64,000 nucleotides of DNA, taken from NCBI GenBank assembly GCA_963716395.1, contig OY970309.1, positions 32,001-96,000 of the forward strand, in the 5' to 3' direction. The translations under genes and the position numbers were made by a program. Below the pieces are notes generated by a model that worked only from the letters and a program-made list of their open reading frames with translations, made no database searches and was not told the origin of the DNA. Positions 22,533-32,412 of the stretch are shown piece after piece. Each line of letters starts with the position of its first letter. Within the stretch, counting starts at the first letter, position 1. This DNA comes from an uncultured Fibrobacteria bacterium (GTDB taxonomy: Bacteria > Fibrobacterota > Fibrobacteria > UBA11236).

Positions 22533-22772
22533 CGATTACCTCTTTTTCGTGAAACCTTCTGCGCCAAGCGCAAAATTTGGAAGGTGGAAAAAGTTAATAA
22601 ATCGACCTCGACCCTCGCCTGGCGAAGCCAGGGCACATCGCTTCCCGCTGCGAATCGGCAGGAACCTCGTGCGCACAGACGCCCCGTTGGCCGGTGACGC
22701 CGATCACAGTTCGCGCTGCGGTCAAAGGGTTACCTTTTTTAGGGAACTCTGTAACCGGACGTCGGAGGCAAC

Positions 22773-24491
22773 ATGGGCAAACCCGCGGCGCGATTGACCG
22801 ACAGCACAGCGCATGGCGGCCTGGTCACCGGCCCGGGCTGCCCGACCGTACTCATCGGCAAAATGCCGGCCGCCACCATGGGCGACATGCACGTTTGCCC
22901 CATGCTGACCCCGGGCGTGCCGCCCATTCCCCATGTGGGCGGGCCCATCACCTTGGGCAGCACCGGCGTATTCATCGGCAAGAAACCCGCGGCGCGCTTG
23001 GGCGATATGTGCGTGTGTGTAGGTCCGCCCTCGACCATCATCATGGGATGCATGACCGTGCTCATCGGCGAGGTGGGCAGCGGCTCGCAGGCCGCCAGCG
23101 CGGCCTCGGCATTAGCGGCGCAAGCGGCTAAAGCCACGGGCCCCAAGTCTTTGAAAGCGGGAGATCCTCCGCCGGTGCCGGAAGTGGCCACGGAAAACCA
23201 CGTCATCGACTGCGAATTCACCGACGCGGCGGGCAAACCCTTGGCCGGCGTGGGCTATCGCATCAAAGACCCCAACGGAATGGAAATCGCGGGCGGCAGC
23301 ACGGTGGAAGGCAAAGGGTATCATCCGGGTTACGCCAAAGCCGGGAGCTTCGAGATTCACGTTTTGTCGCTGAAGAACGCCAAGTGGAAGAAGAGCAAGG
23401 TGAAGATGGGCGAGGCCGCCGAGTTTTCGGTAGAAGCCGACTTGTTCGGAGACCACCCCGAAGTGTATGTGAACATCTACCAGTGCCGGGGCGGCCTGCG
23501 GCGCTGGGTGGCCAGCCAGGTGTTGCCGGTAAAAGGCGGCAAGGCCGAAGGCAAATGGCAGCCGAGTTATGAAGAACTGGGGGTCGAAGAAAATGACGCG
23601 GACGCGGCCGACGCTACGGATGCGGCGCCCCCGACCTATTCGGATCCGGCCACCTATGAATTCGTGTGCGATGGCAACGGCGTCATCGCGTTATCGGATG
23701 ACATGCATTTTGTCGACGACCTGGAGATCGAGTTGTTGGACGCGAAGAACAAGGGTGTTCCGAATGCGGATTACGAAGTGGAGTTCCCCAGCGGCGAGGT
23801 GAAGAAAGGAAAATTGGACGGAAGCGGGAAGGCGAAGCTGACGGAGGTCGAGCCGAGCCATGTGCAGATTCGATTTCCGGGCGAGGACAAGAAGCAGAAG
23901 GAGAGGAAGAAAAAGACAAATTCAGGCATGGCGAATGGGAGTCACGTTTCTGAATCCTCATCTGAGCATCATAAAGACAATTCGAAACAAGAAAATGCCA
24001 ACTTGCCCGGCCCTCTAAAATCTCAGATCACTTTCCTTTTCCCCCTGAAACATCGTCCCGAATTGAGTTATAAAACAGGACATCGCTATTTTGGAGCGGA
24101 CCGGAATAACGGGGCGAGGCTTCACGCGGGATGCGATCTAATCGTTCCTGCCGGAATAGAAATTCGGGCCGTCACCGACGGAATAGTGATCCAATTCTAT
24201 CCATTCTATGAAGGAACTTGGTGTCTTGAAGTCGATCACGGTTCTTTCACGGCAAGGTACAGTGAAGTAGATTCAAAGTTTCCCGAAGGCATCAAAAAGA
24301 GTGCGGCCGTCAAACGAGGTCAAATCATCGCTTGGGTTGGATTGATGGCATCAGGCAGCCATATGTTGCACTTTGAACTTTACAACAAAAATGCGAATGG
24401 CCAGTTGACTCAGCGAACCAACAAACCGTTTCAGCGAAGGTCGGATTTGGCGAATCCGACAAAAAGTTTGGATGAAGCCGTGATGGAGTAG
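22773..24491 (+). CDS. PAAR spike protein with transthyretin-like/Ig-like linker domains and C-terminal M23 peptidase effector
   Basis: Three PAAR motifs (PAARLTD, PAATMGD, PAARLGD) and a GGAGG RBS. M23-like HAGCD and HMLHFELY in an AT-rich C-terminal segment. Confidence 0.88.
   Translation: MGKPAARLTDSTAHGGLVTGPGCPTVLIGKMPAATMGDMHVCPMLTPGVPPIPHVGGPITLGSTGVFIGKKPAARLGDMCVCVGPPSTIIMGCMTVLIGEVGSGSQAASAASALAAQAAKATGPKSLKAGDPPPVPEVATENHVIDCEFTDAAGKPLAGVGYRIKDPNGMEIAGGSTVEGKGYHPGYAKAGSFEIHVLSLKNAKWKKSKVKMGEAAEFSVEADLFGDHPEVYVNIYQCRGGLRRWVASQVLPVKGGKAEGKWQPSYEELGVEENDADAADATDAAPPTYSDPATYEFVCDGNGVIALSDDMHFVDDLEIELLDAKNKGVPNADYEVEFPSGEVKKGKLDGSGKAKLTEVEPSHVQIRFPGEDKKQKERKKKTNSGMANGSHVSESSSEHHKDNSKQENANLPGPLKSQITFLFPLKHRPELSYKTGHRYFGADRNNGARLHAGCDLIVPAGIEIRAVTDGIVIQFYPFYEGTWCLEVDHGSFTARYSEVDSKFPEGIKKSAAVKRGQIIAWVGLMASGSHMLHFELYNKNANGQLTQRTNKPFQRRSDLANPTKSLDEAVME
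23741..23863 (+). repeat. Direct repeat copy 1 (123 bp, identical to 25906-26028)
   Basis: Base-by-base identity from cgcgaagaacaagggtgttcc to gagccgagccatgt; imperfect similarity extends about 25 bp upstream and 45 bp downstream. Confidence 0.97.
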
Positions 24492-24493
24492 AA

Positions 24494-25087
24494 ATGAAAA
24501 TCAGAAAATCCACCTCAATTTTTTATTCGGCTACATTGGCGCTTATGACGGTTACGTTTGCAATTTCGGCCTGCAAAAAAAAAGATGAGAATCCAAATGC
24601 GCAATCACAATCCACTTCTTCGCTAGTGCAACGGTCCGAACGGGTACCGGCGATGTTCGATACGATTGGCCATGCGCTTGCAATTGATATCAACGGTGAT
24701 GGACTAACTGATACCATCAAATCCGTGCACGTTCAGGCCCCAGAAAAAATCAAGAGCACATTTTCGTTGACCATCCCTGAAAAAGCGGATTTGGCGGAAG
24801 CCGACACATTCTCGAATTGGGGCTTGCTCGTATTGCTTGGAGATACCAATTCACCTAGAAAAAAGGACAGCCTGTTCTTTCCGGGCATTGCAGGCGTCAT
24901 TTATGATCAGGGGGATCCCGACATTGTTCGGGCTGACACTTCGTCCAATATGGAAATGCAAAAATTGAAGAAAGCGGGAATTCGCATGATGGTTTCTTTG
25001 TTCACCCAGTCAGGCGCTTCCATTTATTTGTATGAAACCCAAGGAAAATACAGGGTTTACTGGCCTTCGGAAGAGTCAGGAGATTGA
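24494..25087 (+). CDS. Putative immunity lipoprotein for the M23 effector
   Basis: Starts 2 nt after the toxin stop. Lipoprotein signal (FAISA-C), DINGDG Ca-binding-like motif, AT-rich. Confidence 0.68.
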   Translation: MKIRKSTSIFYSATLALMTVTFAISACKKKDENPNAQSQSTSSLVQRSERVPAMFDTIGHALAIDINGDGLTDTIKSVHVQAPEKIKSTFSLTIPEKADLAEADTFSNWGLLVLLGDTNSPRKKDSLFFPGIAGVIYDQGDPDIVRADTSSNMEMQKLKKAGIRMMVSLFTQSGASIYLYETQGKYRVYWPSEESGD

Positions 25088-25368
25088 GAGGAATCCGATT
25101 TATCAAATGAATCGGCTGTTTAGCATCTCCGTTTTGACATGTACCGCCTGTAAATTCGGCTCCCGCCAAACCGAAGGTAACCGCGGTGTTTCGGCTGCAC
25201 CCGACTCCGTCACCTTGCGTTACGGCGCTCCCGCCTCTCCTTCTTCAGGGAAAAACATGTTCAATATATTATTAACTATGTCTAAATATCAATGAAATGG
25301 TTAGTATGTACGGAGAAGGGATTTGCTCAACCCTACATCGTATTTGGATTCGGCTACGGATACCTGAA

Positions 25369-25881
25369 ATGGACTTAAAATGGTCAAGTACCAAAAAATT
25401 GATTGTGAGTTTGATTCTGGCTCACTTCAAGGTTTTGGCAACACCAGAATATTCAGTCCGAGTGATTTCAAAGCCGGAAGCGACTAAATTGATTCGAAAA
25501 CTTGATGGCGATGGGAAGCTGAGTCAGTGGGAGAATAGTCGTGGACTCTCAAAACATCCGGAATTTTATTATCAAGAATTCGGAAGAATAGATAGCATTG
25601 GTATATCTTACTTAATTTTTATAAAAAAACCTCAAAACAATCGAGATTCAAGTATCGTACTTGATGTAATCAGATTAAAATCAAAAAAACTCACCTACAT
25701 TGATATCACACACTGCACTTTTGCACCCTTCGATCCTGACAATGTTCCGACATTAGTTACGAATAAAACAGGAACGCCAATGATCTTATCCGCTTGGGTC
25801 GGTGATCCAATAACAGGAAAATTCGTTGCGGTTCCAAAGAATACCGTAAGTTGCAACTTTGACGAGAGTGACGAAGAATAA
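25369..25881 (+). CDS. Putative orphan immunity protein (exported)
   Basis: AT-rich ORF with a signal-like N-terminus from ATG 25369 (MDLKWSSTKKLIVSLILAHFKVLA); lies within the toxin/immunity array. Confidence 0.55.
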   Translation: MDLKWSSTKKLIVSLILAHFKVLATPEYSVRVISKPEATKLIRKLDGDGKLSQWENSRGLSKHPEFYYQEFGRIDSIGISYLIFIKKPQNNRDSSIVLDVIRLKSKKLTYIDITHCTFAPFDPDNVPTLVTNKTGTPMILSAWVGDPITGKFVAVPKNTVSCNFDESDEE

Positions 25882-26602
25882 CGAATTGAAGATCAAGTTA
25901 CAGGTCGCGAAGAACAAGGGTGTTCCGAATGCGGATTACGAAGTGGAGTTCCCCAGCGGCGAGGTGAAGAAAGGAAAATTGGACGGAAGCGGGAAGGCGA
26001 AGCTGACGGAGGTCGAGCCGAGCCATGTCAAGATTCGGTTTCCGGGAGAGGATGCGAAGCAGAAGGAAAAGGAGAAGGCGGAGGGAGGTGGGTCGGGAGA
26101 CTCATCACAATCTACGGAGAGCGGAAAGAGCAGTGTTGAAGCGGAAAAAAGGGGAGGTAATAATTCAAGCGCAACTGACACGGAGCATAATTGTATTTCG
26201 TTTCAGGATGGAACTAGTATTACAGCAGAGGCTAAATTATGGGTTGGGGTGCCCTATCTAACCGGAGGGGAAGATAAAGATGGGGCGGATTGTTCAGGAA
26301 GCGTTTTTGGGATATACAGAGACGCGGGTTTTCCTTTTCCTCGAGTCGGTTCCTATGACTTTCCGTCGTTAAAAAATTTCCAGCTTGCCCCCGATAATAT
26401 TCCGCAAGCGGGCGATGTTGGTTATTGGCCTGGACATTTAATGATATATGATTCAGAAGCGGGCCTTACCTCTAAGCATGAACAGGCCAATGGCTGGTCT
26501 GCATCTCATCCAGGTGGGACGCCCTTCAATACCGCGAGATTCCAATGGTTTGACGATCATTATCAAACACAAGTAAGATGGTATCGCTATTTAAAGAAAT
26601 AA
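25859..26602 (+). CDS. Orphan toxin cassette: transthyretin-like domain + linker + NlpC/P60 peptidoglycan hydrolase
   Basis: PYLTGG...GADCSGSV catalytic Cys and GHLMIY His. The N-terminal part duplicates the PAAR-protein linker. Only TTG starts are available ahead of the repeat, with no clear RBS. Confidence 0.78.
   Translation: MTRVTKNNELKIKLQVAKNKGVPNADYEVEFPSGEVKKGKLDGSGKAKLTEVEPSHVKIRFPGEDAKQKEKEKAEGGGSGDSSQSTESGKSSVEAEKRGGNNSSATDTEHNCISFQDGTSITAEAKLWVGVPYLTGGEDKDGADCSGSVFGIYRDAGFPFPRVGSYDFPSLKNFQLAPDNIPQAGDVGYWPGHLMIYDSEAGLTSKHEQANGWSASHPGGTPFNTARFQWFDDHYQTQVRWYRYLKK
25906..26028 (+). repeat. Direct repeat copy 2 (123 bp)
   Basis: Identical to 23741-23863 and in the same codon phase. 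Confidence 0.97.
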
Positions 26603-26604
26603 GT

Positions 26605-27330
26605 ATGAGATCTTCTCTAATTCCGTACAGATACTATTGGAATCAGCGAACTCTGCTTTTCGTCTTAGCAATTTCGCTTGTTAGTTTTGAATGCACTTTT
26701 GCAGGCAATTCACTAATTCCAGGAGATTATATCAGTCAAGAATATCTTGATAACTTGAGGTCAACATTTTCGCCAATGGCGGCCAACAAATTAGGTCATT
26801 TACAATCTCTAAAAATCATTTCCACGGATCAAAAATTATTCCTCCAAACCATTTATGACTTCAATGAAGGGGGGCAGAAATACCAAGTTTTAAATGATGA
26901 CTCGGTCCACTTAATTGAAGGAAAAGGCCTCAACCCATCGTTTAAAAAAATCGACTCGGCGACGATAGTATTTACTTTTGGCGATTTGCCCAAAAAAACA
27001 TTTAATTATACCGCGCATCTTGAACAAATTGTTGGCAGCATTTGTCTCTCAGGCGAGTATAAGAATTCAGCGAATCAAAAACTTTCGTTTTATCCAAATG
27101 GGACATGGTGTTTCAAAAACAAAACCAATCCTTTTAAAATAGGCATGTTTTATCCACCGAGTTTCAGGTTGGATTACTTCATAACGGACACGGGTGAGGT
27201 CGGATTTAAAAGGGTGAAAGATACGCTTCAACTGTTTAACACTATCGGGGGTTCATTGTTCGAAGATGGAAAGATTGATCTTGATCATCCTGAAGTGTTT
27301 TTAAGATTGAGCCCGGCTTCAAATAATTAA
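26605..27330 (+). CDS. Putative immunity protein for the NlpC/P60 cassette (exported)
   Basis: ATG 2 nt after the toxin stop; hydrophobic signal (LLFVLAISLVSFECTFA); AT-rich. Confidence 0.65.
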   Translation: MRSSLIPYRYYWNQRTLLFVLAISLVSFECTFAGNSLIPGDYISQEYLDNLRSTFSPMAANKLGHLQSLKIISTDQKLFLQTIYDFNEGGQKYQVLNDDSVHLIEGKGLNPSFKKIDSATIVFTFGDLPKKTFNYTAHLEQIVGSICLSGEYKNSANQKLSFYPNGTWCFKNKTNPFKIGMFYPPSFRLDYFITDTGEVGFKRVKDTLQLFNTIGGSLFEDGKIDLDHPEVFLRLSPASNN

Positions 27331-31947: not shown

Positions 31948-32412
31948 TTAGGGTTTCTCCGGCGGATGCGCCTCTTCCCAGCGGTATTGCTTCCGCGAAC
32001 CGTTTCCAAATTGTTCCAGAAAGATTCCCAGGAAGTAGTTCCAGCCATTCTCGTGCGATCTCCCGCCGTCGCTGTCGGGGAGGCCGGAGTGAAGAAGGGT
32101 CATCAACGTGTCTTCCCCCTGTTTCCGAAAGGTCAGGGTCACCGTGGATTCCTCGCCCAAGGTGTTGGGTGAAACCCAGGTATGCTGGATTTGCCCCGGT
32201 CGCTCCACTTGCGTGAAGCGGCCGTAATGCGAGGTCCCCATCATCCGCCAGTAGAAGAGCCCGTCTACCTCCGGATGCAAAATGAGTTTTTCCCCCTCAT
32301 GCCAGGGAGTGCCGGGGACCTTGGGGTTCAACCACGCATCGAAAACCTCGTCCGGCGGAGCGGGGATGGTGCGTTCCAACTTCAACTCAATGGTCTTCTT
32401 TTCGTTCTTCAT
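31948..32412 (-). CDS. SRPBCC (AHA1-like) domain protein
   Basis: LERTIPAPPDEVFDAW, TLLHSGLPD, HENGWNYFL; AGGAG RBS. Confidence 0.88.
   Translation of the reverse strand: MKNEKKTIELKLERTIPAPPDEVFDAWLNPKVPGTPWHEGEKLILHPEVDGLFYWRMMGTSHYGRFTQVERPGQIQHTWVSPNTLGEESTVTLTFRKQGEDTLMTLLHSGLPDSDGGRSHENGWNYFLGIFLEQFGNGSRKQYRWEEAHPPEKP

Follow-up and report, generated by a model that had tools for sequence, protein, structure and literature searches.

Does a PAAR gene in a bacterium of the phylum Fibrobacterota carry an exchangeable toxin, and are spare toxins stored behind it? The question is raised by a locus at positions 22773–27330 of the window, by which we mean the whole stretch of 64,000 nucleotides that was analysed (positions 32,001 to 96,000 of contig OY970309.1, from an uncultured Fibrobacteria bacterium). 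A preliminary description of this DNA had proposed a cassette-exchange system built on a PAAR scaffold, with swappable peptidoglycan hydrolases as tips and an array of immunity genes. With a probability of about 0.8, we read the locus as a polymorphic toxin-immunity locus belonging to a type VI secretion system (T6SS) and combining a PAAR-fused specialised effector with a displaced orphan cassette. This reading draws on the anatomy of the locus, its domains and repeats, its compositional mosaic, the injection machinery encoded in the genome, the variation of tips among relatives and the conserved adjacency of the P60 tip and the gene behind it (ORF5). The window is part of a single 3.75-Mb contig with a GC content of 59.8 %.

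A probable PAAR effector gene and a truncated second cassette

Five open reading frames (ORFs), all on the plus strand, succeed one another within 22773–27330 in the order PAAR-linker-M23, ORF2, ORF3, orphan P60 cassette and ORF5, at the places and in the order initially described. The main gene (22773–24491, delimited by its reading frame and Pfam) encodes a protein of 572 aa that matches Pfam PAAR_motif (PF05488, E 7.7e-20, 71.3 bits versus a cut-off of 27) and Peptidase_M23 (E 2.5e-10), while the fourth ORF matches NLPC_P60 (E 1.5e-6); the three domains first named thus all exceed the curated cut-offs in profile searches. In the main protein the PAAR domain spans aa 1 to about 100 (22773–23075; the Pfam and NCBIfam matches cover stretches of aa 21–99), followed by a linker of tandem beta-sandwich modules of the Ig/MG/prealbumin-like type at aa ~140–375 (23190–23897, placed by a structural model and structural matches) and by the M23 tip, M23a, at aa ~422–572 (24036–24491; Pfam match at aa 450–540).

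The last module of this linker is present twice. A direct repeat of 196 nt with 91 % identity and a spacing of 2165 nt connects 23716–23911, which is the last linker module and ends where homology to all other copies ends, with 25881–26076, which forms a stub at the head of the orphan cassette. At the protein level aa 315–380 of the main protein match aa 8–73 of the orphan with 85 % identity (E 2e-33), and by simple arithmetic (offsets 23715 and 25880) both copies begin at codon starts and share the same codon phase, consistent with the protein alignment. The orphan cassette itself (25850–26602; 247 aa if counted from a TTG, 25859–26602) consists of the truncated linker stub, a Ser/Gly-rich spacer and an NlpC/P60 tip, and runs intact from stub to stop over 250 codons. 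Its frame opens no earlier than 25850, at 31 nt from the repeat and in overlap with ORF3, and the stub homology starts right after the ORF3 stop codon; the fourth ORF is therefore a 5'-truncated copy, in agreement with the start-less linker seen at the outset.

The base composition follows the same boundaries. GC content drops from ~0.60–0.67 to 0.37–0.50 between ~23900 and ~27300, which bears out the AT-rich stretch noted earlier. At third codon positions (GC3) it amounts to 0.78 in the scaffold, 0.74 in the stub and 0.73 in the next downstream gene, as against 0.48 in the M23a tip and 0.38 in the P60 tip; both tips and the three small ORFs lie within 0.35–0.48, and the drop falls exactly at the end of homology. 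Since the GC3 of the stub is host-like and the adjoining tip looks foreign, the sequence suggests that the P60 tip was formerly fused to such a scaffold.

The PAAR domain and its linker

Residues H14, H40, C42, H54 and C82 of the PAAR domain, candidate Zn ligands of its metal site, are invariant across 15 scaffold proteins. Its N-terminus, AARLTDSTAH, fits the motif AARxxDxxxH, whose DxxxH element has a role in the PAAR metal site (PMC7773334). This segment is contiguous with the PAAR repeats and lacks a transmembrane segment, and the only hydrophobic peak of the main protein falls within the PAAR core. The N-terminus thus resembles those of whole, unsplit PAAR domains, unlike the prePAAR effectors that bear transmembrane segments and act in the cytoplasm (PMC7773334).

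The linker was modelled with AlphaFold2 (AF2) from an alignment of the 15 scaffold proteins. Mean confidence per 10-residue block is 77–95 for aa 141–270 and 80–91 for aa 291–370, with a dip to ~50 at aa 271–290, and the confident parts (aa ~140–270 and ~290–370) are predicted to be all-beta. The highest-ranking structural match (VIA) comes from a T6SS effector of Bacteroides fragilis, namely its N-terminal domain (Z 10.4, rmsd 2.7, 103 residues aligned), but since it is tied with complement MG domains (Z 10.2) among Ig/MG-like matches of Z 10.4–9.5, the linker can be assigned to a fold class only. With the whole scaffold model Foldseek returned only multi-domain Ig/MG chains at a TM of ~0.2; the PAAR part of the model is too poor for use. 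In the relatives' proteins the last linker module gives weak Pfam matches to SpaA and CarboxypepD_reg, and the stub lacks the first two strands (aa 294–307) of this module as modelled. No match to an RHS family was obtained with Pfam at E <= 0.1 for either the 572-aa or the 247-aa protein.

Two predicted peptidoglycan hydrolase tips

The M23a tip matches M23 enzymes in the PDB at 6e-5 to 2e-3 and belongs to a subfamily with the signature HAGCD, DHG and MLH[FL]E (MLHFE in the window copy), the Cys of HAGCD being invariant. All nine subfamily members aligned share HAGCD and VDHG without exception, and these segments align to solved M23 enzymes. The subfamily is found at 161 loci across phyla, including Alphaproteobacteria, Cyanobacteria, Acidobacteriota, Verrucomicrobiota and Myxococcota. 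Among the 80 loci kept of these 161, two are fused to PAAR, both of them in Fibrobacterota, and most members are small proteins. Close relatives of M23a bear SH3_3, PG_binding_1 or LysM domains, a company that fits a putative cell-wall substrate.

In the P60 tip the catalytic residues C38 (in DCSG) and H86 (in GH) are invariant in 8/8 family members, and the tip aligns with solved NlpC/P60 chains. It retrieves 1120 matches at E <= 1e-3; among the 12 best besides itself, found in proteins of 136–2654 aa, 10 end at most 16 residues from the C-terminus. When ten of the matching proteins were scanned with Pfam, six carried RHS domains and two PG_binding_1. A 491-aa PG_binding_1 protein encoded near the sole vgrG gene (genome positions 2680170–2681645) may be a cargo effector, since P0002 and P0003, to which the orphan P60 tip is most closely related, likewise begin with PG_binding_1.

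A second PAAR locus in the same genome

PF05488 detects only two PAAR genes genome-wide, the gene in the window and another at 1180984–1182813. A block of 1188 nt (22725–23912), which begins 48 nt ahead of the start codon and reaches as far as the linker's end, is 97.8 % identical between both loci, and is followed by complete divergence. The upstream leader with which the block begins (22725–22772) is 85 % identical on its own. The second gene ends in another M23 tip, M23b, with 36 % identity to M23a. Behind it are arrayed a 195-aa ORF similar to ORF3 (36 %), a 113-nt stub (genome positions 1183371–1183483), a CHAP-like tip, a 205-aa exported protein and two tip-like ORFs. In this first orphan, stub and tip are in different frames, and one of the last two tip-like ORFs is fused to a DUF772 transposase fragment. 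In another locus (L037), a tip on a full scaffold and the gene next to it are homologues of the CHAP-like orphan and of the 205-aa gene, respectively. The tail of the second locus (1180984–1187395 overall) is GC-poor as well, with 0.36–0.46 over ~5.5 kb, and Pfam gave no match for the small ORFs scanned there. The tail also contains an amidase-like ORF of 179 aa, which is found too in Rhs arrays of Nitrosomonas (L052, L053).

One scaffold with different tips in relatives

Among 14 related loci in named genomes, 13 belong to metagenome-assembled genomes (MAGs) labelled Fibrobacterota, the phylum that had been guessed from the sequence. A search of 40 related genomes found the scaffold in 19, in open frames of 171–949 aa; full-length identity goes up to 54 %, and short partial matches reach 66 %. 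Twelve of the relatives' loci were fetched and all except L043 were scanned with Pfam. Their scaffolds carry a CHAP tip, a tip made of OmpA, EF-hand and calpain-like C2 domains, an M23 tip (47 % identical to that of the window) and, in four cases, a tip without Pfam match; four further proteins, of 357–374 aa, consist of the scaffold only. Comparison of relatives, which had been suggested as a check on tip variation, thus reveals unrelated tips on a conserved scaffold, and the tip regions are again GC-poorer than the scaffolds that bear them.

Candidate immunity genes

Behind the effector gene, ORF2 (24494–25087, 197 aa) begins 2 nt past the toxin stop codon. Its signal peptide (KD19 maximum 1.74 at residue 9) ends in a lipobox, AISAC, consistent with the lipoprotein first noted at this place. 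A homologue with 30 % identity belongs to the genes arrayed after the M23 tip in a relative (L045/L121). Complex prediction for the M23a tip with mature ORF2 gave a median of 0.49 (runs of 0.48, 0.80 and 0.49) versus 0.00 for the best control; the runs share at least 48 % of contacts and the pLDDT of the partner is at least 56. In a calibration on 80 solved complexes and 110 mismatches, 58 of the former and 2 of the latter attained the mark; scores up to 0.60 account for only 7 of the 80 but for both passing mismatches. Modelling therefore lends weak backing to ORF2 as the partner of M23a, and we consider it a candidate for the cognate immunity protein.

ORF5 (26578–27330, 250 aa, probable start 26605) has a hydrophobic N-terminus (KD19 1.88), as expected for the exported product postulated behind the P60 tip. 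Homologues are encoded directly 3' of a P60 tip in 2 of 20 loci, one in a Fibrobacteria MAG (L049; 34 %, E 4e-43) and one in an Acidobacteriia MAG (L055; 30 %, E 2e-17). These two include the closest P60 tip and one at 44 % identity. At the remaining 8 of 10 P60 loci inspected, a different exported protein of ~205–222 aa (truncated in one case) follows the tip. Judged from this adjacency, ORF5 is a candidate immunity protein for the P60 tip. The pairing of tip and presumed immunity gene is thus kept elsewhere for P60 and ORF5 and for the CHAP-like tip and the 205-aa gene, while for M23a and ORF2 there is adjacency plus one non-adjacent co-occurrence.

ORF3 (25297–25881, 194 aa, probable start 25369) had been described as an orphan exported ORF. 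Its export signal is only weak, the N-terminal hydrophobic segment scoring a KD19 of 1.24 when counted from an internal Met, but the ORF is more than anonymous. It shares 35.6 % identity over 191 aa (E 4e-26) with ImmB, the gene that immediately follows M23b in the second locus, and is preceded by a 70-nt remnant of an insertion sequence (IS). The remnant (25237–25306), located between ORF2 and ORF3, is 100 % identical to genome positions 1860925–1860994, where an IS630-like element present in a single copy, with a transposase ORF of 343 aa, has its right end. One metagenome contig passes from the remnant into this element. Since the remnant sits just upstream of ORF3, where a toxin is expected, it hints that IS activity removed the toxin that ORF3 may have accompanied. 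ORF3 would be a diverged copy of the antidote to a related M23 tip, either giving protection against kin or persisting as a relic. The full element (1859933–1860994, at ~1.86 Mb) splits a glycosyltransferase gene.

Pfam and NCBIfam gave no match for ORF2, ORF3 or ORF5. Atlas look-ups for ORF2 and ORF5 returned only clusters of 'hypothetical protein' (scores 0.87–0.92), to be taken as leads only. Comparison of ORF2, ORF3 and ImmB with 80 further M23 loci yielded no match except on the contig already known. In L045 the M23 tip is followed first by a gene for a 201-aa lipoprotein, which was considered as a homologue of ORF3 and ImmB and rejected, as BLASTP detected no similarity.

Injection machinery and a model for delivery

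The preliminary description had called for a genome-wide search for injection machinery. Such machinery is present: TssK, L, M, A, B, C, Hcp, E, F and G form a T6SS core cluster at 3.309–3.323 Mb, and one VgrG of 718 aa is encoded at 2.677 Mb (the search covered T6SS genes other than TssJ and ClpV).

Secretion, toxicity, protection and any actual exchange are what we infer from these elements. The PAAR cone would cap the single VgrG spike, with the three beta-sandwich modules and the low-complexity spacer holding the C-terminal M23 metallopeptidase. Firing of the T6SS would carry this enzyme into the periplasm of a neighbour, where it would cut the peptide bridges of peptidoglycan, while the ORF2 lipoprotein in the producer's own periplasm would be the likely antidote. 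Stub, NlpC/P60 tip and ORF5 would together constitute a displaced toxin-immunity cassette. Since only the last part of the linker is kept, the orphan would not be mountable on the spike alone. The P60 tip could become joined to the PAAR scaffold by a crossover between the in-phase 196-nt repeats or, alternatively, by gene conversion that involves the nearly identical second locus.

Evidence against and alternative explanations

Several observations weigh against this interpretation or parts of it. The first His of the HxH motif is replaced by Met in all nine M23-subfamily members, the second being invariant; the window copy (SHMLH) has a His one residue earlier, as do two other members, and HMMER aligns it to PH-LH with a one-residue gap. 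Given this non-canonical motif, catalysis may differ or be weak. The sole relative of ORF2 occupies the third place after the L045 M23 tip rather than the first, and a word-indexed search with ORF2 returned only ORF2 itself. The PAAR part of the AF2 model is unreliable (pLDDT < 50 for aa 1–133). Stub-bearing orphans have so far been seen in this genome only; among the 12 loci fetched from relatives, the 9 that were testable contain no further copy of the stub downstream of PAAR. Within the genus the distribution is patchy, the scaffold being found in none of 11 congeners and TssC in one of them. A cluster for an extracellular contractile injection system (eCIS) exists in the same genome, with no PAAR gene detected there. 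Finally, among sequencing runs no RNA run was listed, and the one DNA run, with a small share (0.09), contained no junction between main gene and orphan tip, in five short low-depth contigs that cannot show absence. The anatomy of the proposed exchange system is confirmed, while exchange itself is only inferred and no recombinant junction has been seen. A 171-nt low-depth metagenome contig, 92 % like the stub (window 26016–26132), continues into sequence absent from the genome; as very weak evidence, it may represent a further stub-tip junction in a related strain.

How much the orphan still matters is the question on which the strongest alternative turns. The T6SS toxin locus could be real and the orphan a decaying leftover of one displacement, with no working exchange and no swapping of tips on a useful time scale. 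To this possibility we give appreciable weight, though well short of an even chance. Stub and main gene share only 91 % identity, as compared with 97.8 % between the two main genes, in the second locus the first orphan has its stub and tip in different frames and the third is joined to a piece of transposase, an IS remnant lies within the window array, and the lack of stub copies in the nine relatives' loci and of joints in the short contigs points the same way. However, the window orphan is intact over its 250 codons, has kept its catalytic Cys and His and is in phase with the main gene; ORF5 is intact too, and 196 nt at 91 % identity still offer runs of exact matches long enough for homologous recombination. 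At the other extreme, a PAAR scaffold found across the Fibrobacterota might use its final beta-sandwich module as a dedicated handle for docking and recombination, with which a small spike-tip protein lacking a shell captures toxin-immunity cassettes circulating on Rhs proteins of other phyla. Tips would be shuffled between the twin loci in living populations, giving a third exchange platform beside Rhs and CdiA, and the M23 lineage on it would be active despite its non-canonical HxH. This is a speculative and rather doubtful extension. The truncated P60 ORF could instead be a working stand-alone gene that starts from a GTG or TTG at 25859–25868 and encodes a cargo effector or a cell-wall enzyme. 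A public gene call (P0001) indeed places a start that gives 244 aa, and many family members are short (130–300 aa). Such a role is nevertheless unlikely: the protein lacks a signal peptide (KD19 maximum 0.46), its first 70 residues would form an incomplete beta-sandwich from which the strands of aa 294–307 are missing according to the model, and its frame opens 31 nt before the repeat in overlap with the previous ORF.

The destination of the PAAR protein can be questioned as well. The eCIS cluster (~2529220–2550032, ~2.47 Mb from the PAAR locus) encodes a sheath, CIS_tube, Pvc16_N, an AAA ATPase, a Phage_base_V spike, gp25, Tail_P2_I, DUF6519 and eCIS_core, and the PAAR proteins could cap its Afp/PVC-like spike rather than that of the T6SS. 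In favour of this, the cluster at ~2.529–2.550 Mb has no detected PAAR gene of its own, and PF05488 matches only the two toxin loci. But TssC accompanies the scaffold in 19/19 scaffold-positive relatives, the scaffold is found in 0/16 TssC-negative ones, and the eCIS marker Pvc16_N occurs in only 5/19 scaffold-positive relatives; as these genomes are kin, the co-occurrence counts as a trend and lacks the force of a statistical test. Hydrolases that act in the periplasm and have their antidotes there, moreover, suit T6SS delivery from cell to cell between Gram-negative bacteria, and capping of the eCIS appears quite improbable. Least probable of all, and by our estimate very much so, is that the hydrolase tips are not toxins and serve the producer by cutting its own or the target's wall for passage of the T6SS. 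Peptidoglycan hydrolases for T6SS assembly do exist (TagX; PMC5061870), yet the relatives' tips vary and include non-wall enzymes such as the calpain-like C2 tip, a small exported protein is encoded behind each tip together with arrays of such genes, and the same P60 tip terminates Rhs toxins.

Comparison with known systems

Much of what makes up the toxin-immunity locus has precedents. PAAR-fused effectors with polymorphic C-termini, recombination at conserved 5' regions and orphan immunity genes set in arrays are in print (PMC3482391, PMC8546570, PMC9846239), as are M23 and NlpC/P60 T6SS effectors (PMC6833914) and orphan toxins of Rhs and CdiA systems (PMC3967940). T6SS and Rhs toxins were noted in 2016 in a Fibrobacteres genome, that of Chitinispirillum (PMC4814513). 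The initial claim of novelty, for the PAAR-based arrangement as for the phylum, was accordingly overrated. For a Fibrobacterota T6SS as such, our literature search found only genome-level mentions (PMC4814513).

The closest parallels are the DUF4150/PAAR effectors of Agrobacterium and the Tse7 variants of P. aeruginosa, which likewise join a shared N-terminal PAAR or PAAR-like domain to a variable C-terminal toxin with an adjacent downstream immunity gene (PMC8546570, PMC9846239, PMC3482391). Their variation between strains is ascribed to recombination, and they lie on islands away from the T6SS core, as here (PMC8546570, PMC9846239). The Fibrobacterota locus differs by a linker of ~240 aa made of three beta-sandwich modules, by tips predicted to target the cell wall instead of nucleic acids or NAD, by the absence of a transmembrane segment and of a nearby adaptor or chaperone gene, by orphan toxin cassettes with a linker stub, and by its host phylum. 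In Rhs and CdiA arrays, 5'-truncated modules similarly keep a conserved piece and their own immunity genes, and recombination there can activate them (PMC3967940, PMC3482391). In contrast to Rhs proteins, the window protein has neither RHS/YD repeats nor a shell, and nothing in it indicates autoproteolytic release; what is conserved is a beta-sandwich module and not an Rhs core with a DPxGL cleavage motif. Rhs proteins elsewhere bear the same family of P60 tip as the orphan.

Amidases of the Tae/Tse1 type and the LysM-M23 effector 'Tpe' of Acinetobacter also bring M23, NlpC/P60 or CHAP enzymes to the periplasm of a rival and have periplasmic immunity proteins (PMC6833914, PMC10763514). They travel as cargo via VgrG or Hcp, whereas the enzyme here is covalently fused to PAAR, and its M23 subfamily has MLH[FL]E in place of HxH. 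In VgrG2b, where a transthyretin-like (TTR) domain precedes a metallopeptidase that acts in the periplasm (PMC7043769), a small beta-sandwich likewise stands between spike and effector; here the sandwiches follow PAAR and not VgrG, and there are three of them. The TTR label itself rests, for the linker described here, on weak Pfam matches in relatives and generic fold matches.

What is added is the phylum-wide scaffold with its beta-sandwich linker, stub-bearing orphans behind a non-Rhs PAAR gene, the twin loci and the sharing of P60 tips across scaffolds. A literature search, which was not exhaustive, turned up no publication that describes orphan toxin cassettes with a stub following a PAAR effector outside the Rhs class.

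Genomic context

The flanks of the locus are confirmed on one side: the upstream neighbour is a periplasmic sugar-binding protein (Peripla_BP_4), in line with the sugar-binding gene first named there, while rsmI for the downstream gene is the label of the preliminary description only. This rsmI-like gene is kept in 10 of 11 congeners with 75–79 % identity. Since the gene found upstream of it in 6 of 8 congeners maps ~81 kb away in this genome, the PAAR locus lies at a synteny break, and synteny places the borders of the island in part only. The congeners' genomes measure 1.9–2.7 Mb (n=11), compared with 3.75 Mb here. Scans for promoters (9 promoter-like sites versus 5.0 ± 2.1 expected) and terminators (3 terminator-like sites versus 6.9 ± 2.2 expected) were uninformative, and the consensus may not suit the phylum.

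Significance

The locus indicates that the storage of orphan toxins is not bound to Rhs or CdiA proteins, since the logic of stub plus cassette would also operate on an ordinary PAAR protein whose linker is Ig-like. Tips appear to cross scaffolds and phyla, a probable wall-cutting P60 family being found on Rhs proteins of other phyla as well. ORF2, ORF3 together with ImmB, and ORF5 represent three unannotated families of candidate periplasmic antidotes. For the Fibrobacterota, a little-studied phylum with important polymer degraders, this provides a concrete and testable candidate for an interbacterial toxin system.

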